A stretch of 64,000 bases of DNA, taken from NCBI GenBank assembly GCA_020445605.1, contig JAGRGH010000037.1:177949-241948 (forward strand), written 5' to 3'. The stretch is from Chromatiales bacterium (lineage in GTDB: Bacteria > Pseudomonadota > Gammaproteobacteria > JAGRGH01). Below are positions 8,998-56,066 of this stretch, piece after piece (the stretch's first letter is position 1; each line of letters starts with the position of its first letter). Made by a program: the position numbers and the translations under genes. The notes beneath the pieces are model-generated. The model was not told the DNA's origin. It did not search any database and was given only the letters and a program-made list of their open reading frames with translations.

Positions 8998-10340
8998 GTC
9001 ACGAGCGCCGTTTTTTTGGTACCGACGGAATTCGCGGCCGCGTCGGCGAACCGCCGATCACGCCGGAATTCGTGATGAAGCTTGGCTGGGCCGCCGGGCG
9101 CGTGCTGGGCCGCGGTGCCGGCTCGCGCGTGCTGATCGGCAAGGACACCCGAATCTCCGGCTATGTCTTCGAGTCGGCACTCGAAGCCGGGCTGGCGTCC
9201 GCCGGTGTCGACGTCGGCCTGCTTGGCCCCATGCCCACGCCGGCAATCGCCTATCTGACGAGGACGTTCCGCGCCGACGCGGGAATCGTGATTTCGGCCT
9301 CGCACAACCCGTTCCACGACAACGGCATCAAGTTCTTTTCCCCGGAAGGACAGAAGCTGCCGGATGAAGTCGAACTGGAGATCGAGCGGGCGCTGGAGCT
9401 GCCGCTGGAAATGGTCGCGGCCGAGCGCGTGGGCAAGGCGCGGCGCATCGATCACGCCGCTGGTCGCTATATCGAGTTCTGCAAGTCCACGGTGCCGATT
9501 TCCACCTCCCTGGAGGGGCTGCGCATCGTGCTCGACTGCGCGCACGGAGCGACCTATCACATCGCCCCGCACGTGTTCGGCGAACTGCGCGCGCGCGTAA
9601 CGACCATGGGCGTCAGCCCGGACGGGCTGAACATCAACGCGGACTGCGGGTCCACACGCCCACAGGCCCTGCAGAGGGCGGTCGTCGAGGCGCGAGCCGA
9701 TCTCGGTATCGCGCTCGACGGTGACGGCGACCGGGTGGTGATGGTCGATGATCGCGGCGAGGTCGTCGATGGCGACGAACTGCTCTACATCATCGCCCGT
9801 GGACGTTACGCGGCCGGCGAACTGCATGGCGTGGTCGGCACCGTCATGAGCAACTTCGGGCTCGAGGAGGCGCTGAATGCGCTCGACGTGCCGCTGTCGC
9901 GCGCCCAGGTCGGAGACCGCTACGTGCTCGAAAACCTGCGCGCCAACGGCTGGACGCTGGGGGGCGAGTCCTCTGGCCACATCATCTGCCTGGATCGCAC
10001 GACCACGGGTGACGGCATTGTCGCGGCGCTGCAGGTGCTCGCCGAGATGCGTCGCACCGGCAAGTCACTGCGTGAGCTGCGCACCGAGATGCCGCGCTAT
10101 CCGCAGGTGCTGGTCAACGTCAGCGCGGAGGACAAGAAGGCCGTGCTGAACGCCGAGTCCGTACAGCGGGCCCTGGCGGACGCGGAAGCCGAACTGAACG
10201 GCCACGGCCGGATCCTGCTGCGGCCGAGCGGTACCGAGCCGCTGGTCCGCATCATGGTCGAGGGGCGTGATGCCGCAAACGTCGAGCGCATTGCGCTTGA
10301 GCTGAAAGGCGTGATCACTGGAGTGACCGGCGCGGCCTAG
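8994..10340 (+). CDS. glmM: phosphoglucosamine mutase
   Basis: [29 protein letters not shown] and the active-site region [14 protein letters not shown] (E. coli: ASHNPFYDNGIKFF). GTG start overlapping the folP stop (GTGA). Confidence 0.95.
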
Positions 10341-10343
10341 TGT

Positions 10344-10497
10344 CCTGTTGAAAAGACACGTCCGGGCTTTTCAGTAACAACCGGAAAGGGCGGTTTTCGG
10401 CTGCTCACGAAAATCAACCACTTGCGTGTTCGATTTTCGGGCGAGACGTCCCTGTCTCGCGATATCAGGCTGTTGAAATTCTCTTTTCAACAACCTG
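10344..10497. repeat. MITE-like palindromic repeat, copy 1
   Basis: ~155 bp in the glmM / PGPGW-gene spacer. Ends carry gttgaaa..tttcaac hairpins; the right end is TTTTCAACAACCTG. A ~93% identical inverted copy lies at 55203..55364. Confidence 0.75.
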
Positions 10498-10938
10498 CTA
10501 GAACCAGCCACTCACCCATGCGAAGGCCCAGCGCGCGAGCAGAATCAACACCACCAGGCTTGTGAGGCCGATCAGGATCACGACCGTCCAGCGTTTCGCT
10601 GGCGGCGTACGCACCCACCAAGCGTGAATCCGTCCCGCCCAGGCGCGCAGCAGCAACTCGCCGCGGTCAAGCAATCTCGCGACTACGCGAAACTCCTGAC
10701 CGATCAGCGCCAGCCCCACGACCAGCACCAGTAATCCGGGGCCGGGCGTCACCAGCATGACCAGCCCGGCCGTGATCAGCGCAGAACCCGAAGCGATCGC
10801 AATCAGGCTGCCGAGGCCGAACCAGCGTGGCCCCTCGCCGTGCCGCCGCCGGAAGCGGTCCTCGAAGCGCTGGCCCGGCCGGCTCGCGGCAAGTTCGTGC
10901 CAGTGCGCCTTGATCGTTTCGCGAATCTTTGTCCACAT
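10498..10938 (-). CDS. PGPGW-family small transmembrane protein
   Basis: 146-aa C-terminal part of a long ORF (MWTKIRETIKAHW...LVTPGPGLLVLVVGLALIG...) with two hydrophobic hairpins. The upstream extension of the same ORF (to 12438) runs antisense through tpiA/secG/tRNA and is rejected. Confidence 0.55.
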   Translation of the reverse strand: MWTKIRETIKAHWHELAASRPGQRFEDRFRRRHGEGPRWFGLGSLIAIASGSALITAGLVMLVTPGPGLLVLVVGLALIGQEFRVVARLLDRGELLLRAWAGRIHAWWVRTPPAKRWTVVILIGLTSLVVLILLARWAFAWVSGWF

Positions 10939-16032: not shown

Positions 16033-17322
16033 ATGCCGGAATTCAAACTCTGTCTCGACGGCATCGACCTCGCCACGGCGGACCAGGACAAACCGTGGAC
16101 GCTGGAACGCTACCGCGCGCGTGGTGGTTACGAGATGCTCAAACGTGTGCTTTCCGAACGCTGGGAGGCCGAGCGGATCATCGCCGAACTGAAGACCTCA
16201 TCGCTGCGTGGCCGCGGCGGGGCGGGCTTTCCGACCGGGCTCAAGTGGAGCTTCATCCGGCGCGACATTCCGGGCCAGCGCTATCTCGTCTGCAATTCCG
16301 ATGAGGGCGAACCCGGCACCTGCAAGGACCGTGAGATCCTGCGCTACAACCCGCATCTGCTGATCGAGGGCATGGCCATCGCCGGCTACACGCTGGGCGC
16401 AAGTGCCGGCTACAACTACATCCGTGGCGAGTTCATGGAACCGATCCGTCGGTTCGACGCGGCGCTGGACGAGGCGCGGGTGGCGGGGCTGCTCGGCAGC
16501 AACATTCTCGGCAGTGGCTTGGACTTCGATCTGTATTCACACGCCGGTGCCGGTGCGTACATCTGCGGGGAGGAAACCGCGCTGATCGAATCGCTCGAGG
16601 GCAAGAAGGGACAACCGCGTTTCAAGCCGCCGTTTCCCGCGAACTTCGGCCTCTATGGCCGCCCGACGGTCGTCAACAACACCGAGACCTATGCCTCCGT
16701 GCCGGCGATCCTGCGCAATGGCGGGCAGTGGTTTCTGGACATCGGCAAACCGAACAACGGCGGGCCGAAGCTGTTCTCCGTGTCCGGGCATGTCGAACGC
16801 CCGGGCAACTTCGAGGTGCCGCTCGGCACGGCGTTCAAGGAACTGCTCGCGATGGCGGGCGGAGTCTGGAAGGGGCGCAAGCTCAAGGCCGTGATCCCCG
16901 GCGGGTCTTCCGCGCCGGTTCTGCCCGGCGAGATCATGCTCGGCTGCAACATGGATTTCGATTCGCTCGCAAAGGCCGGTTCCATGCTCGGCTCCGGCGC
17001 GGTCATGGTCATGGATGAGAGCACGGACATGGTGCGGCTGCTCTATCGCATCGCGCATTTCTACTTCGAGGAATCCTGCGGACAGTGCACACCGTGCCGC
17101 GAAGGCACGGGCTGGATGGCACGCGTTGTGAAACGCATCCTCGATGGCAGGGGCCGCAGCGAGGATCTGGCCCTGCTCGACGACGTCTCGCGGCGTATTG
17201 AAGGCCGCACAATCTGTGCGCTCGGCGACGCGGCGGCCTGGCCGGTGCAGAGCTTCATCCGTCACTACCGGCACGAGTTCGAGTACTACATCGAACATGG
17301 CCGCAGTCTGCTGGCAGCCTGA
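16033..17322 (+). CDS. nuoF: NADH-quinone oxidoreductase subunit F
   Basis: 51-kDa subunit: [18 protein letters not shown] site, [13 protein letters not shown] 4Fe-4S motif. Confidence 0.95.
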
Positions 17323-44291: not shown

Positions 44292-45014
44292 TTGCCGATG
44301 CGACTGACTCCCATCCTGACATTGACCATCGTGCTTGCGACGATGGTGAGCGGCTGTGCCGTTCGTGAGACCACGCTCCCCGATCATGAAATCGATGCGC
44401 CGCGCTGGTGGCGCGTGCGCTATCTCATGCACTGGCCAGAGGATTCCGGGCCGCTGCTATATCGCGACACCCTGATTGCCAATGAGATCGTTGCGCCGGT
44501 GCTCGAGACCGAGCGCGATGCGATCGTTGCGTGGCGCATGCATCGTCGCGCGCACCGCGAAACGGGCGGTCATGCGTTCAGCTTTTTGTATTACTCGAAT
44601 GCCGCGGACGGCCCGCGGATTGCGCGCGAATTGATGGAATCGCCACTGCTTGAGCGACTGCTCGCCGCGGGCGTGGTCGAGCGGGCGTGGTCGGAGTGGG
44701 GGCGGGCGATCGAGGATTCACCCATCGAGGCCACGAGCGACCCGAGCTGGTCGCCCGCGATGGCGCGCCACTGGCCGTGGTTCATCATGGGTGTGAGCGA
44801 GACCTGGCTGCGTCTGATCGCCGATTTCGCAGGCCCGCGTGCCACAAGTGCGGATGTGAATCTCGAAGCACTGGATGAACGGTACCTGAGGGTCAGCGAA
44901 GCGGTGACCGAACGCTGGGCCGGGGAGGGCGGCCATGCATTCCTGCATCACCTGAATGCCGTGTTCGGCTACGCGCCGGTGCAAACCGGCCCTGATGAGT
45001 GGCAGCGTTTCTGA
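44292..45014 (+). CDS. hypothetical lipoprotein
   Basis: Signal peptide with lipobox (LTIVLATMVSGCA); 240 aa. Only family-level resemblance (DUF2515-like?) and no firm family call. Confidence 0.45.
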   Translation: MPMRLTPILTLTIVLATMVSGCAVRETTLPDHEIDAPRWWRVRYLMHWPEDSGPLLYRDTLIANEIVAPVLETERDAIVAWRMHRRAHRETGGHAFSFLYYSNAADGPRIARELMESPLLERLLAAGVVERAWSEWGRAIEDSPIEATSDPSWSPAMARHWPWFIMGVSETWLRLIADFAGPRATSADVNLEALDERYLRVSEAVTERWAGEGGHAFLHHLNAVFGYAPVQTGPDEWQRF

Positions 45015-45026
45015 GCGGGCCTGGGC

Positions 45027-45125
45027 AAAAAAATGCGCCGCGTCCCTGCGGCGCCATGCGCGGACAAAGCCGGCCAGACAGTCCTTGTGCGGGACGAAAA
45101 CGAAAAAGCGCGGTTTTTCGTTTTC
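45027..45125. terminator. convergent terminator region (two hairpins)
   Basis: GC hairpin GCGCCGC-gtccct-GCGGCGC preceded by AAAAAAA (a T-run on the minus strand), serving the secreted-protein gene. Second 12-bp hairpin GAAAACGAAAAA-gcgcgg-TTTTTCGTTTTC plus T-rich tail, serving the + strand. Confidence 0.55.
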
Positions 45126-45207
45126 TTACATTTTCAGTGGCTTAGGGACATTGAAAGTGGTGGCACGTCCCTGTGCCACGGGAAACTCTGAATTGATCAG
45201 AGTTTCC

Positions 45208-46791
45208 TTAGAGATCCCACCAGTCGAAATCGAAGTTCGTACCGAGCAGAGGGTCGATATAGATCGCGAGAAGCTGTCCGTACTCGACCAGCGCCGCGTC
45301 CGGATGATCCTCGTGGGCCTGTACGTCAAACATATACCAGCCGGCGCCGAGCACATCGTGCATGTCGGTGATGCCGGAGGATTCCTCGTCGGTCGTGATG
45401 AACTCGGCTGCGCCCTCGGAGAAGTAGCGGGGGTCGTGCGCCGCGACTTCGATCAGCTCCTGGGTCTCGATGCCGTAGAGCCAGATCTTGCCCAGACGCG
45501 CATTGCCGCCGACGTCTTCCTGCATGACGATTCGGCCGTAGATGTCGACCGTCAGGTTGTCGAGCATCTGGTGACCTTCGTCACCGTCGAGCAGCAGTTC
45601 AATCGTGCCTCCGTAACGGAACGGATCATCGACATCACGGAAGCGCAGTTGCCACAAGCGACTGGCGAGGTTGCTCGCGTCCCCGGCGCCACGGAAGTTG
45701 CCGGTCGTCACGAAATAGAAGTCGTTCTCGTGGCCGGGACGGGGATCCCATGCGCCGTCCTCGATGCGCTGAAAACGCGTAACGTCGCCCGCAATCGATT
45801 CGGCCTGAAGTTCGGCGCCAGTCTTGTTTGCGACCCATCCATGATCAACCAGGGTGAACTGCGCGCGCCGAACAAAGCCCATCTCGGCATTGCCGAGACC
45901 GAATTCGTTGCTTTCCTCTGGAATTGCGTCACCAGCCTGATACACGCGTACGCCACGCAGTATGCCGTTGAGGAGTCCCGCGCGCGCGACCACGTTGCCG
46001 GTCGTCTGCTTCCAGCCAGCGTAAACATAGAGCTCTGACGGCGCGTCGGTGCTGGCAGGGTCGGTCACACGATCCGCGTCGTCGAGTCCGATCACAAGTG
46101 TGCGCATGCGCGAGTGCGGGTGCGGCGCGATGTTTTCAAAAGCCATCTTCCCGAGCGTCGGCAGTTCATAGAGCTTGCCGGCTTCGGGGCCCGTCGCAAC
46201 GTATGCGAACCCGCGGCCGTGGTCGTCGGAGAACGGCGGACGGGTTTCCTCTCCGGTGAGAAAGATTCGATCTGCGGTACCGTAGGTTTCGCCGTTTTCA
46301 AAAATGAACGCCTGTGGTGAAGCGAGGGTGGCCGAACAGAACCGGTTGAAAGCGTCGGTTCCGCTGACAAACCACTGGCTGTCGGTGTCCCAGGTATTGA
46401 CGTCGGTGCCGCTTGCGACCGCATCGCGACCACTGAGCACCTCGAGGTTTGTATTGCGGATCTTCCAGCGCGACAGGAACGAGCCGGTTGAACCATGTGC
46501 ACGCACGGTGCCGGCCTCCGGCCCAAACTCGTGATTCAGGATAAGGTCGAACGTGCCGTCGCCGTTGTTGATGCCACCCAGACCATCGGGGATTCCAGCC
46601 ATTGTGTAGCCGCCGATTGTATCGCCGACGGTCAACACAGAGATCACGGCCACGCGGTCGCCGAGCAGCGGGTTTGCCTTCATGTACGGTTCGGCAGCGG
46701 TGCTTGGCCCGATATTGGCTGCACTGACCGCGGTCGAGGCTACGCCGATCGCCATCGCGATCGCGGAGCGACATACGCTATGAATTTTCAT
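45208..46791 (-). CDS. secreted hypothetical protein (possible beta-propeller / PhoX-like fold)
   Basis: Signal peptide MKIHSVCRSAIAMAIGVASTAVSAANI with an SD GGTGA 7 nt upstream of the ATG at 46791. Gly/Asp-rich repeats (FQRIEDGAWDPR, YFVTTG) are compatible with DUF839/PhoX-like propeller proteins, but the family assignment is not secure. Confidence 0.5.
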   Translation of the reverse strand: MKIHSVCRSAIAMAIGVASTAVSAANIGPSTAAEPYMKANPLLGDRVAVISVLTVGDTIGGYTMAGIPDGLGGINNGDGTFDLILNHEFGPEAGTVRAHGSTGSFLSRWKIRNTNLEVLSGRDAVASGTDVNTWDTDSQWFVSGTDAFNRFCSATLASPQAFIFENGETYGTADRIFLTGEETRPPFSDDHGRGFAYVATGPEAGKLYELPTLGKMAFENIAPHPHSRMRTLVIGLDDADRVTDPASTDAPSELYVYAGWKQTTGNVVARAGLLNGILRGVRVYQAGDAIPEESNEFGLGNAEMGFVRRAQFTLVDHGWVANKTGAELQAESIAGDVTRFQRIEDGAWDPRPGHENDFYFVTTGNFRGAGDASNLASRLWQLRFRDVDDPFRYGGTIELLLDGDEGHQMLDNLTVDIYGRIVMQEDVGGNARLGKIWLYGIETQELIEVAAHDPRYFSEGAAEFITTDEESSGITDMHDVLGAGWYMFDVQAHEDHPDAALVEYGQLLAIYIDPLLGTNFDFDWWDL

Positions 46792-47003
46792 GCATTCACC
46801 TTGCATTGCCAGCAGATTGATGTTTTCCCGGCATCAGGTCCGGGGCGGCAAAGCTTGCCGGCGCGAGGTGACGCGTCGTTGACGCGCGATTTACGAATAC
46901 ATCATTGTTTTGCTGCGCTACGGTTGCGGGTGAAATATCGCGGACATGCCGATGAAACATCGGCATCTCAATTGGCGGCGTTCGGTCGCCGGTCTGCGAT
47001 CGG

Positions 47004-53275: not shown

Positions 53276-53278
53276 GCA

Positions 53279-53300
53279 AGCGGCCGCTTTTGTGACACAA
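53279..53300 (+). terminator. candidate intrinsic terminator after the thioredoxin-TPR gene
   Basis: AAGCGGC/GCCGCTT hairpin followed by TTTGTG. Confidence 0.4.
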
Positions 53301-53395
53301 CCAACCCGGAGACTGCCGTGCGCGGATGGCCGAGGTTGGGAAGCAGGTTCGTGTCGCTGGCTGTTGGACGAGCCCGAAAACAAGGCAGGTAACCA

Positions 53396-54199
53396 ATGCT
53401 CGCGACCATCCGCTACTACTATTCAAGGTTTGGAATCCCCGGCGTGTGGTCGGCCACCAAATTGAAGCTCGGCGGTTCGGATCATCTCATCGAGGTCAGA
53501 AAGCGCGGGGTCAAGGCGCCGTTTTTTCTCCGACTGCGAACCAGTGACCTGCCGACCTTCGAGCAGATTTTTGTCCGCCAGGAGTACGACTTTCTTGCCG
53601 GGTCCCCGCCGAAGGTGATCGTGGATGCAGGCGCAAACATCGGGCTCGCGTCGACCTGTTTTGCAAACAGGTTTCCACTTGCAAAGATCATCGCGATCGA
53701 GCCGGAAGACAGCAATTTCAGATTGCTGGAACGCAACGTCTCGCCTTATCCGAATGTGGTTCCCGTTCAGGCGGCATTGTGGAACTCCAATGGCGAGATC
53801 AGCCTGGTTGACCCGGGATATGGCAAATGGGGGTACATGACGAGCGATGATGAAGCTGCCCAGAGGAGCGTCAATCAGGTTTGTCATCCGGTGGCGGCCA
53901 TGACGGTGGACCGGGTGATGCGCGACTTTGGCCTGGACAGGATCGATATCCTCAAAATGGATATCGAGGGCGCCGAGCGGGAGGTGTTCGCCGGTTCTTC
54001 GTCCTGGATTGAAAGCGTCGAGTCAATCATTGTTGAACTGCACGAGCGGTTGAAACCCGGCTGTAATCGAAGTTTCTACAACGGTACCAACGGATTCGAC
54101 TCGGAGTGGAGGCAAGGGGAAAGGATCTATCTTTCAAGACGCGGGGTCATCCGTCCGGGCCCCGGCGCAGGTCGGACCAGAAGGGCTGCCGTCGCATAG
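53396..54199 (+). CDS. FkbM-family SAM-dependent methyltransferase
   Basis: VIVDAGANIGLASTCFANRFP...IIAIEPEDSNFRLLERN...IDILKMDIEGAEREVF (Methyltransf_21/FkbM signature). GC ~56%, well below the flanks. Confidence 0.85.
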   Translation: MLATIRYYYSRFGIPGVWSATKLKLGGSDHLIEVRKRGVKAPFFLRLRTSDLPTFEQIFVRQEYDFLAGSPPKVIVDAGANIGLASTCFANRFPLAKIIAIEPEDSNFRLLERNVSPYPNVVPVQAALWNSNGEISLVDPGYGKWGYMTSDDEAAQRSVNQVCHPVAAMTVDRVMRDFGLDRIDILKMDIEGAEREVFAGSSSWIESVESIIVELHERLKPGCNRSFYNGTNGFDSEWRQGERIYLSRRGVIRPGPGAGRTRRAAVA

Positions 54200-54381
54200 G
54201 GTTCCGGCGTTCGGCCGACTCACCGGTTGCGCTATGCGGCGCTTCAGTGCTGCGGTCGTGGCGGTTTGCGTCGAAACAAGATGCCACAGGCAGGAACGGA
54301 ATTCCCTGCGCGGTTTCCGGATTGCGCGGTCGGCACGTATGCTGTGCGGCACGTGATTCGCATCCTTCCGGTCGGCGAGCG

Positions 54382-55170
54382 ATGGGCATTCTCAGAAAAC
54401 TGGCCAGAATACGGAGGTATGGGCTGACTGGTGCGCCGATCAGGCAAGACCGTCTCATCGTATCCGCGGAGAAACGTCTGGTTGTCGGTTTCACGCCCAA
54501 GGCGGCCTGTACGGTCGCCAGCAAGCTGTTCTTTCATACGATCGGAAAGCTGGACGAAGCCCGGGATCAATCGGACTGGATCCATGATTACAGGGAGGTT
54601 TACTGTGAGAAAAACCCGGTCCGCTATGTCCACCTGGTGTCCAGGTCATTCCTGAAAATCAAGTTTGTTCGGAATCCATTCCACCGTGCGGTAAGCAGCT
54701 ACATCCATGCGATGAGGTACGGGTACGTGGGCGCGGAAATCGAAAGGTCGCTCCGTCTGGGGGATTTCCGGGATGCGTCGTTTCGGGACTTCGTCCGCTT
54801 TCTCACCATGGAGGACCTGCATCGTTCGAACGTCCACCACGATTACCAGAAACTACGGCTCGAAGGTGTCGCGTTTCACTTCGACCACATAGTCCGGGTG
54901 GAAAATATTCTGGAACGGCTCAGTCAGATCAAAGCAGCCGATGGACGCGGCCTGGACTGGAACGAATCGTTGCTGAGCAGTCGACATCACACCAAGAAGA
55001 AGTGCGGGGAACAGGTGGCGGCGTTCGACCTGCCCTTCAAATCGCTCGTTGAGACGGGCGCTGGCTTTCCGGATTACAGCCGGTTTTACGATCCGCAATT
55101 GCTGGATGCGGTATACGAATTGTATAAGGTCGATTTTGATGCGTACGGATACGCTCGCGGGAAGCTTTGA
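54382..55170 (+). CDS. carbohydrate-sulfotransferase-like protein (Sulfotransfer_2-type motif)
   Basis: 5'-PSB-like GFTPKAACTVASKLFF and 3'-PB-like KFVRNPFHRAVSSYIHAM mirror the VPKVACTNW / FVREPFERLVSAYR motifs of HNK-1/chondroitin-type sulfotransferases. GC ~54%. ATG at 54382 inside the longer ORF. Confidence 0.6.
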   Translation: MGILRKLARIRRYGLTGAPIRQDRLIVSAEKRLVVGFTPKAACTVASKLFFHTIGKLDEARDQSDWIHDYREVYCEKNPVRYVHLVSRSFLKIKFVRNPFHRAVSSYIHAMRYGYVGAEIERSLRLGDFRDASFRDFVRFLTMEDLHRSNVHHDYQKLRLEGVAFHFDHIVRVENILERLSQIKAADGRGLDWNESLLSSRHHTKKKCGEQVAAFDLPFKSLVETGAGFPDYSRFYDPQLLDAVYELYKVDFDAYGYARGKL

Positions 55171-55202
55171 ATCGTTCAGTCTTTGCCGGGACAGGTCGTT
55201 GG

Positions 55203-55364
55203 CAGGCGGTTGAAATTCTGATTTCAACGGCCTGATATCGCGCGACAGGGACGTCTCGCCCGAAAATCGAACACACAAGTGTTTGATTTTCGTGAGCAAC
55301 CGAAAACCGCGCTTTTCGGTTGCGATGTTGAAAAGGCCATGGATGGGCCGTTTTCAACAACCTG
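55203..55364. repeat. MITE-like palindromic repeat, copy 2 (inverted relative to copy 1)
   Basis: ~160 bp with terminal hairpins GTTGAAATTCTGATTTCAAC and GTTGAAAAGGCC..GGGCCGTTTTCAAC. Right TIR TTTTCAACAACCTG abuts the stop codon of the downstream minus-strand gene. Core is ~93% identical to the reverse complement of 10381..10471. Confidence 0.75.
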
Positions 55365-56066
55365 TTAGCGCATGCGCACGACGGCATATAGATCGTAGGG
55401 GTCGCGGAAGGTCCACATGCAGTCGGCAAACCCGGCGCGCGCGGCGATGGCCTCCCAGCTCGGGATGGATTCCGGGTGATCCTGATTCAGCACGTGGGCG
55501 CTGACGCGGCTCAACTGGTCCTCGCTCAGATCGGCCCACTGATCGCGAAAGCAGCGCACGCTGCGTTCGAGAAACTGTTCGCGGGTCTCGTCGTCGCGAC
55601 GGAACACGTCATAGACGAAGATCTCACCGTCGTCGGTCAGCTGGTCGTGCATCCACGCGAGCAGTTCGCGTTTCTCGTCGTTTTCCAGATGATGCATGGA
55701 ATAGCCGGCGACGATCAGGTGGTACGGCCGGTCGGCGTAGTCGGCCGACCGCTGCATGGTGTCGGCGTGTAGCTGGATGTCACGCACGCGGCCGTCCAGG
55801 TTCTTGCGGGCGAACTCCAGCGCCGGCGCGGACAGATCGATCCCGCGATAGTGCGCGATCTCGTTGCCTTCGAGCGCCTGGCTCAGCACGTAGGCATCGC
55901 CACAGCCGACCTCGAGCACGTTCATGTCCACATGCAGCAGGCCGCCGAGCGCCCGACGCATCTGGTCGGTGATCTCGTTGTGCAGCATGTAGTTGCCGGC
56001 AATGACCTGCTGGTAGAGCTGCCAGCCTTCGAAGAAGGACTGGATGTCTTTGTCGTCCTGGTTCAT
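55365..56066 (-). CDS. class I SAM-dependent methyltransferase
   Basis: Motif I VLEVGCGDAYVLSQAL, acidic motif II, ~233 aa. Co-oriented downstream of glgB-glgA. Confidence 0.75.
   Translation of the reverse strand: MNQDDKDIQSFFEGWQLYQQVIAGNYMLHNEITDQMRRALGGLLHVDMNVLEVGCGDAYVLSQALEGNEIAHYRGIDLSAPALEFARKNLDGRVRDIQLHADTMQRSADYADRPYHLIVAGYSMHHLENDEKRELLAWMHDQLTDDGEIFVYDVFRRDDETREQFLERSVRCFRDQWADLSEDQLSRVSAHVLNQDHPESIPSWEAIAARAGFADCMWTFRDPYDLYAVVRMR

Follow-up and report, generated by a model that had tools for sequence, protein, structure and literature searches.

Correia/NEMIS elements of Neisseria and the BIME/RIP repeats of E. coli are intergenic repeats of ~100-160 nt, with inverted ends and a central IHF-type site, that are transcribed together with neighbouring genes as stable hairpins. 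Correia elements have a TA duplication and form one long hairpin. BIME/REP sequences make no duplication of the target and rely on a transposase of the Y1 (RAYT) type; the hallmarks of REP/REPIN repeats are this lack of duplication, a conserved 5' tag of the GTAG/CGTC type and a RAYT gene with repeats on either side. Among other structured repeats, the attC stem runs RYYYAAC...GTTRRRY, and CRISPR repeats occur in arrays. The Correia/BIME-type class of intergenic repeats has been reviewed (PMC2229807). The closest described relative in kind of the element considered here is MITEPsy1 of P. syringae pv. phaseolicola, a 100-nt MITE derived from IS5/ISPsy2 that makes a 4-nt CTAG/YTAA duplication and has been shown to transpose (PMC3189936). 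IS5 itself duplicates a YTAR target of 4 bp (PMC5009759).

The element is a 162-nt repeat that occupies exactly positions 55203-55364 of the window (the whole 64,000-nt stretch of DNA that was analysed), in the A-to-E orientation on the minus strand. It begins 32 nt past the stop codon (55168-55170) of a plus-strand Sulfotransfer_2 gene (54382-55170) and abuts the stop codon (55365-55367) of a convergent, minus-strand SAM-methyltransferase gene (55365-56066). This sequence, copy 2, is the reverse complement of copy 1 (10341-10497). The two copies are inverted with 44.7 kb between them, and their 121-nt arms are 88% complementary when aligned. A GTTGAAA..TTTCAAC motif and a common 28-mer each occur twice in the window against an expectation of 0.00 from shuffled sequences, so the match between the copies is far above chance. 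The preliminary description had placed a second, inverted copy of a palindromic element between the two convergent stop codons; its coordinates coincide with the ends of the element, and its estimate of about six core mismatches is close to the seven that the alignment gives for the B-D core. The 162-nt sequence is non-coding, as a short MITE should be; the only long open reading frames that cross it, two on the minus strand (54853..55299 and 55037..55429), are spurious frames antisense to the sulfotransferase gene.

Either strand of the element is predicted to fold into five tandem hairpins, lettered A to E as they follow one another in copy 1, with folding energies of -57 to -78 kcal/mol and z-scores of -3.8 to -7.5; the element at 55203-55364 gives -74 to -78 kcal/mol and z of about -7. 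All five lie on the minus strand in copy 2. Hairpin E (55203-55234) combines the terminal inverted repeat with an internal inverted copy, CAGGCGGTTGAAAT..ATTTCAACGGCCTG. Hairpin D (55240-55259) has a 7-bp stem and a hexaloop that reads GTCCCT on the A-to-E strand and AGGGAC on the plus strand. Hairpin C (55261-55292) forms the centre of the element and carries AATCAAACACTTG (plus-strand 55276-55288), which fits the IHF consensus WATCAANNNNTTR exactly (PMC8942017). Hairpin B (55296-55323) is built as GCAACCGAAAA-loop-TTTTCGGTTGC, and all of its helix pairs (11/11) show compensatory changes across the family. In hairpin A with its outer terminus (55327-55364), the terminal repeat CAGGTTGTTGAAAA (minus strand, starting at 55364) is paired to an inverted copy of itself further inside the element, around the loop CATCCAT. 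The two ends of copy 2, CAGGTTGTTGAAAA and CAGGCGGTTGAAAT, match at 11/14 positions and constitute terminal inverted repeats of the kind that define a MITE; the family consensus at both ends is CAGGnnGTTGAAAAA. The terminal palindrome that had been taken for an extra and perfect hairpin of copy 2 is hairpin A itself (55327-55358). It contains one bulged base and has a decayed homologue at ~10347-10378 in copy 1; hairpin A of copy 2 is better preserved than its counterpart rather than extra.

Copies 1 and 2 both have type 1 termini and are recovered by covariance model R1, built from 24 family members, with scores of 121.1 bits for copy 2 (E 9e-35, model positions 1-162) and 98.1 bits for copy 1 (E 1e-27). 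Copy 2 is flanked on the right by TTAG (55365-55368), a YTAR target duplication whose first three positions, 55365-55367, are the TAA stop codon of the minus-strand SAM-methyltransferase. On the left is TTGG (55199-55202), the other copy of the duplication with one substitution; its reverse complement, CCAA, recurs in the family as a variant of the E-side flank. In copy 1, on the plus strand, the A terminus has decayed, with TGTCCT in place of CAGGnT. Its left CTAG (10337-10340) holds the TAG stop codon of glmM (10338-10340), and its right CTAG (10498-10501) holds the stop codon (10498-10500) of a minus-strand PGPGW-family gene. Because both stop codons lie inside these duplications, the convergent glmM and PGPGW-family genes would have had a single CTAG in common before the insertion.

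A search of the window with the covariance model revealed a third copy (45079-45207, plus strand; 48.7 bits, E 2e-12) that the preliminary description does not include. It is a decayed member that retains hairpins B, C and D, has an E hairpin of the form GGGAAACTCTGA-attga-TCAGAGTTTCC and has lost its A end; its ends of the GGAAACTCTGA type place it in the type 2 subfamily. The TTAG that follows (45208-45211) holds the stop codon of the minus-strand gene at 45208-46806. This gene (532 aa) and the plus-strand open reading frame at 44292-45014 (240 aa) match no Pfam family and have GC3 values of 0.73 and 0.75, against 0.82-0.85 in typical neighbours; they may be a second compositionally odd patch beside a MITE copy. 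Just upstream of copy 3, at 45035-45054, we also observed an isolated hairpin, GCGCCGC-GTCCCTG-CGGCGC, with the loop motif of hairpin D. A hairpin at 16438, GAACCG-ATCCGT-CGGTTC, resembles it and may be a chance occurrence.

A further 9 kb of sequence to the left of the window contains two more copies, of type 2 and in tandem (L145:7675-7996), located on the same contig ~1.1-1.4 kb from the start of the window. Their flanks are TTAG, CTAG and CTAG, the middle CTAG being common to both copies. The pair lies between convergent methyltransferase and short-chain dehydrogenase genes, with both stop codons inside duplications. All five copies seen in the source organism are thus at junctions of convergent genes, with stop codons within the duplications. 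The source species was sampled through ~30 metagenome contigs encoding proteins identical to those of the window. Copies 1 and 2 occupy identical positions, with the same gene order, in every readable contig, and no insertion polymorphism of either copy was seen among the sampled strains. The strains do vary in the vicinity of glgB: on one contig (ERZ27309265 k141_774672), genes for an ABC transporter and glycogen phosphorylase lie beside glgB and the LigT-like gene is missing (L002/L127 vs L001/L128), and the other strains have glgC, GH57, GH77 and ROK genes at that position.

The terminal hairpin is far more widespread than the window copies. The pattern CAGGnnGTTGAAA-loop-TTTCAACnnCCTG was found at no fewer than 120 loci in GTDB species representatives; the matches listed include Sedimenticola, Halothiobacillus, Thiofaba, Immundisolibacter, Muproteobacteria and other Gammaproteobacteria. 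One Sedimenticola MAG and several Halothiobacillaceae MAGs contain many copies each. The complete gammaproteobacterial element is 159-165 nt long and has five hairpins, and copies that are nearly complete, at 150-165 nt, are present in many genomes. Sequence likeness is confined to the termini: BLAST of the element against the collected family loci gave matches limited to the terminal hairpin. An exact 22-mer from the core, CGATTTTCGGGCGAGACGTCCC, had no match in GTDB genomes and JGI metagenomes, collections that lack the source species. Whole-element BLAST against plasmids returned no match with either type 1 or type 2. A comparison of the window and five loci with Rfam, at both gathering and E-value thresholds, yielded nothing relevant. 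The type 1 terminal hairpin is also found beside other internal modules in Binatia, Planctomycetota and Deltaproteobacteria, and type 1 ends appear to be common to several MITE families. At three Binatia and three Planctomycetota loci, for instance, a CTAG-flanked type 1 hairpin is joined to very different modules such as CTCCCTCTCTCGCGTCTCCCCC..GGGGGAGA.

Model R1 recovers 59 strong full-length matches, and in the alignment of these members fitted to the model 93.6% of cells are paired, compared with at most 51% when the structure is slid along the alignment. Changes on both sides of the helix are present for 42/51 pairs, and 0/500 shuffles reach the observed values. Two results are independent of R1: single-sequence folds give five hairpins in most members, and RNAalifold applied to a plain MAFFT alignment finds 18/40 pairs compensated. 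The loops are constant. TCC is present in loop A of 54/59 type 1 and 64/69 type 2 members, with GGA almost never on that strand, and in loop D of 54/58 and 69/73 members, respectively, again in a strand-specific manner. Hairpin C, centred at position ~78, has TCAA-N4-TTR in 38/59 members; both type 1 copies in the window match the full IHF consensus, a likeness at the level of the consensus.

Type 2 elements have different ends, GGAAGCTCTGA.../...TCAGAGTTTCC (GGAAnCTCTGA), which resemble the ISPsy2/MITEPsy1 repeat and the inverted repeat of IS5 itself, and the same five hairpins and loops as type 1. A metagenome scan with the type 2 hairpin gave 120 loci or more (at least 120), among which ~45 full-length copies measure 149-152 nt and have duplications that are mostly perfect TTAA, CTAA, TTAG or CTAG. 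These members score 50-90 bits with the type 1 model, and their own alignment has 94.7% of cells paired, again compared with at most 51% for the slid structure, and 49/51 pairs compensated. Types 1 and 2 co-occur on single contigs. The alignments indicate that one five-hairpin scaffold is carried by two different IS5-type sets of terminal repeats. Our literature search found no description of this superfamily with two end classes, and a search with the terminal-repeat sequence returned chance primer matches only. Longer type 2 variants of 216-253 nt, on six metagenome contigs, contain extra internal hairpins (e.g. GCCCTGTTGC..GCAACAGGGC) and look like nested insertions or gain of modules. A second dispersed repeat, which starts with GCCCGGATTTCTCACCGG and has long inverted pairs, often adjoins the MITE copies at four loci of Sedimenticola sp. 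356-308.

Evidence for the origin of the element comes from its flanks and ends. Among 56 near-full copies, 24 are bounded by perfect 4-bp direct repeats and 15 by repeats with one mismatch. The left flank fits YTAR in 38 of the 56 and the right flank in 36; YTAR is the target that IS5-group elements duplicate. Non-palindromic CTAA/CTAA pairs are frequent, which establishes a direct 4-bp duplication and excludes both a TA-only duplication and a simple extension of the stem; these flanks also rule out a MITE of the IS630/Tc1-mariner type with its TA duplication. Within the window, copy 1 has CTAG/CTAG, and TTGG/TTAG of copy 2 agree at 3/4 positions.

Intact IS5-family insertion sequences (ISs) in rhizobial plasmids have terminal repeats that match the ends of the element, CAGGnnGTTGAAAA. 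When plasmids were searched by short BLAST with the terminal hairpin, there were half-matches that proved to be the two ends of such ISs: a 1516-bp IS in Mesorhizobium sp. AR02 plasmid pMspAR02c (349159-350674; L135:1004-2519), with transposase WP_258580758.1, and one of 1511 bp in an S. medicae plasmid (L136:2505-4015). Each has the form ctag-CAGGCTGTTGAAAAAGG...TTCAACAGCCTG-ctag and carries the annotation 'IS5 family transposase'. The transposase of a third related IS copy matches NCBIfam NF033581 (IS5 transposase) with 209 bits, above the cutoff of 140, and Pfam assigns DUF772 and DDE_Tnp_1 to the IS5 transposase. On a Ralstonia megaplasmid, a 47%-identical transposase lies in a sequence that terminates in the same repeat. 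These ends also bound ordinary fold-back MITEs, one of 172 nt in a P. aeruginosa plasmid and one of 132 nt in a Methylomonas plasmid.

The family also behaves as a mobile one, with dispersed loci, multi-copy genomes and a site that is filled in one genome and empty in another. This orthologous site, in two Sedimenticola species, holds the element in L021 and lacks it in L039; the insertion is composite, and the flanks are ~80% identical. An unrelated ~230-nt palindromic repeat (L021:7452-7680) lies beside the MITE within the insertion absent from L039. Solo E hairpins and forms with internal deletions are found, as expected of decaying copies. Directly after the accC stop codon, one genus has a full element (L042:3430-3591) and another has the E hairpin alone (L060:663-697); this pair is either an ancient, retained insertion or the same stop codon struck repeatedly.

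We therefore regard the element as very probably a MITE, a non-autonomous DNA transposon that descends from an IS5-group element and would be moved by a DDE transposase of that group supplied in trans. This makes the earlier label 'MITE-like' specific: an IS5-group-derived MITE with a YTAR target duplication. Some observations fit this reading less well. The duplication of copy 2 is imperfect (TTGG/TTAG), and a terminus of copy 1 has decayed. Neither copy 1 nor copy 2 varies in position among the sampled strains, and the single filled-versus-empty comparison concerns a composite insertion. The ~84 kb read from the source organism contain no same-ended transposase gene, tblastn of the IS5 transposase against all collected loci detected none, and the same-ended ISs come from Alpha- and Betaproteobacteria rather than from MITE-bearing lineages. 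Where half-sites lie 0.6-4 kb apart in the collected loci, a full-length IS was sought between them, and all such pairs were separate MITEs flanking housekeeping genes. In a protein search with the rhizobial transposase, the matches listed were all at least 88% identical; those named were rhizobial, and most were metagenome proteins.

We propose that an IS5-group transposase would recognise the terminal inverted repeats CAGGnnGTTGAAAA and put the element into a YTAR tetranucleotide, duplicating those 4 bp. Because YTAR holds TAA or TAG and is rare in a 65% G+C genome (28 sites in the 64-kb window), the usable targets would lie largely at stop codons. Insertions between convergent genes would be harmless and would persist, since the duplication restores the stop codon. 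Insertion into stop codons that are regenerated in this way would explain why copies pile up between the convergent genes of G+C-rich genomes. Copy 2 would have gone into the TTAG that holds the SAM-methyltransferase stop codon, and it is by now a decayed, old and fixed copy, probably immobile. The central IHF-like site could bend the ~160-nt element so that its ends meet.

The setting of copy 2 invites two other explanations. The FkbM-type methyltransferase and Sulfotransfer_2 genes to its left (53396-55170) have a GC content of 0.55-0.57 and GC3 of 0.67-0.69, against GC3 of 0.82-0.85 in their neighbours, and the element begins 32 nt beyond the last of them; the preliminary description placed it at the 3' boundary of a low-GC islet. 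It went on to suggest that the element mediated or marks the insertion of the islet, but the two copies, being 44.7 kb apart, do not bracket these genes. The lone copy at the islet has its own near-intact duplication (TTGG/TTAG), as for a simple insertion into a stop codon, and it encodes nothing. By eye and by covariance model, the opposite islet boundary (53276-53395) contains no second MITE copy or IS. The gene beyond the element has a normal GC3 (0.85), and its stop codon was the insertion target. Every other copy in the organism is at stop codons of convergent genes, most at gene ends free of any compositional anomaly; only copy 3 adjoins low-GC DNA. No strain of the species that was sampled lacks the islet genes. 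The collections searched contain no islet-free or element-free close relative, since all readable contigs of the species have the same gene order and the element, and the nearest homologue of the flanking thioredoxin-TPR protein beyond the species is 50% identical. That the element brought about the acquisition of the FkbM-methyltransferase and sulfotransferase genes, or is a scar left by it, has in our judgement a probability close to nil, and copy 2 should not serve as evidence for the arrival of the adjacent low-GC genes. A main role as a bidirectional terminator, or as a REP-like protector of mRNA 3' ends between the convergent sulfotransferase and methyltransferase genes, would account for very stable hairpins on both strands, for the position of 5/5 copies in the organism between convergent genes and for the E hairpin kept directly after the accC stop codon in two genera. 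The terminator proposed earlier is nevertheless not supported by the sequence: hairpins A to E of copies 1 and 2 lack the combination of a G+C-rich hairpin with a T-run that marks an intrinsic (Rho-independent) terminator, no T-run follows any hairpin on either strand, and a terminator scan was empty for both copies. Elsewhere, copies are also found upstream of genes and in every orientation, and the target (stop codons), together with tolerance of insertions there, accounts for the position at convergent ends. We consider such a main role very unlikely, and a REP-like effect on mRNA 3' ends, suggested by analogy, possible.

Derivation from an IS5-group element gives by itself no explanation for covarying internal stems and constant loops across two end classes, and the interior merits separate consideration. 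Read on the opposite strand, loops A and D give C-ANGGAU-G, and ACANGGAUGU, found in 12/59 type 1 and 40/73 type 2 members, agrees at 10/12 positions with the CsrA SELEX consensus RUACARGGAUGU (PMC7652899). The five-hairpin interior might accordingly be read as a selected, mobile structured module instead of filler, with loops A and D of the form RTCCnT and a complement resembling a preferred CsrA/RsmA ligand; we hold this to be a rather unlikely reading. If true, the MITE would be distributing hairpins that bind CsrA (or another factor) among the mRNA ends of many environmental Gammaproteobacteria. A stronger version makes the scaffold primarily a functional RNA or ssDNA that spreads by means of transposon ends, for example through the two C-ANGGAU-G hexaloop hairpins A' and D' of an E-to-A transcript, which look like high-affinity ligands of the global regulator CsrA/RsmA and would recruit or titrate it. 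It draws on stems that covary around constant loops (93.6%/94.7% paired; 42/51 and 49/51 pairs compensated), on the strand specificity of TCC in loops A and D, on the near-consensus ACANGGAUGU in the 12/59 and 40/73 members, and on the sharing of one scaffold between two unrelated IS5-type sets of terminal repeats. Against it, orientation shows no bias relative to flanking genes (27 vs 19 single-side calls, a comparison of low power made with gene calling that was crude in both of two rounds), G-U and A-C mismatches show no strand preference (62 vs 81), and no promoter, terminator or Rfam match was found. The CsrA likeness is a resemblance of motif, and correction of quasi-palindromes during replication could keep the stems paired without selection. 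This version, too, seems improbable to us, and an IS5-group-derived MITE remains the preferred reading.

As a locus, a single copy such as copy 2 is ordinary. The wider interest lies in the family, a widespread MITE superfamily of uncultured sulfur-cycle and groundwater Gammaproteobacteria with two IS5-type end classes and a YTAR target. Its interior of five hairpins with constant loops is unusual for a MITE and provides a testable case of selection on the structure of a mobile element, which might act through IHF-assisted synapsis or by recruiting an RNA-binding protein. In practice, the repeats can serve as markers when MAGs are annotated, and they can cause assembly breaks.

Comparison with known systems separates the element from several classes of structured repeat. 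The family features exclude attC sites, whose polarity is opposite, and CRISPR repeats, which form arrays. REP/REPIN repeats mobilised by RAYT are excluded by the presence of target duplications, by ends that read CAGG and by the open reading frames between element pairs, which are housekeeping genes. Hairpin loops of the ANGGA type are shared with sRNAs of the CsrB/RsmZ type. The element differs from these CsrA-sequestering RNAs, and was rejected as one of them, in having two such loops (ANGGAU) per copy, on the E-to-A strand, neither a promoter nor a terminator of its own, no Rfam match and hundreds of dispersed copies in either orientation. It resembles Correia/NEMIS and BIME/RIP repeats in its intergenic position, inverted ends and central IHF-type site, the last being here a consensus match only. 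Unlike Correia elements, with a TA duplication and one hairpin, and BIME/REP, with no duplication and RAYT, it has a 4-bp duplication and five hairpins.

The IS5-family ISs of rhizobial plasmids are identical to the element over the first 16-19 nt of the terminal repeats (CAGGCTGTTGAAAAAGG) and share the CTAG duplication. They differ in being ~1.5 kb long, in encoding a 367-aa DDE transposase and a small ORF, in having no five-hairpin interior and in belonging to a different bacterial class. MITEPsy1 and the element are both non-coding and multi-copy; each has short terminal inverted repeats of the IS5 type and duplicates 4 nt of a CTAG/YTAA-type target. The type 2 termini, GGAAGGTCTGAAcAAG.., nearly match the MITEPsy1 repeat GGAAGGTCTGAAAAAGCC, whereas the repeat of copy 2, CAGGnnGTTGAAAA, differs from it, and the five conserved hairpins are a feature of the element. 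MITEPsy1 is 100 nt long, occurs in few pseudomonads and has experimentally demonstrated mobility; the present element is ~160 nt long and is dispersed across many environmental lineages, where we infer its mobility from the distribution and flanks of its copies.
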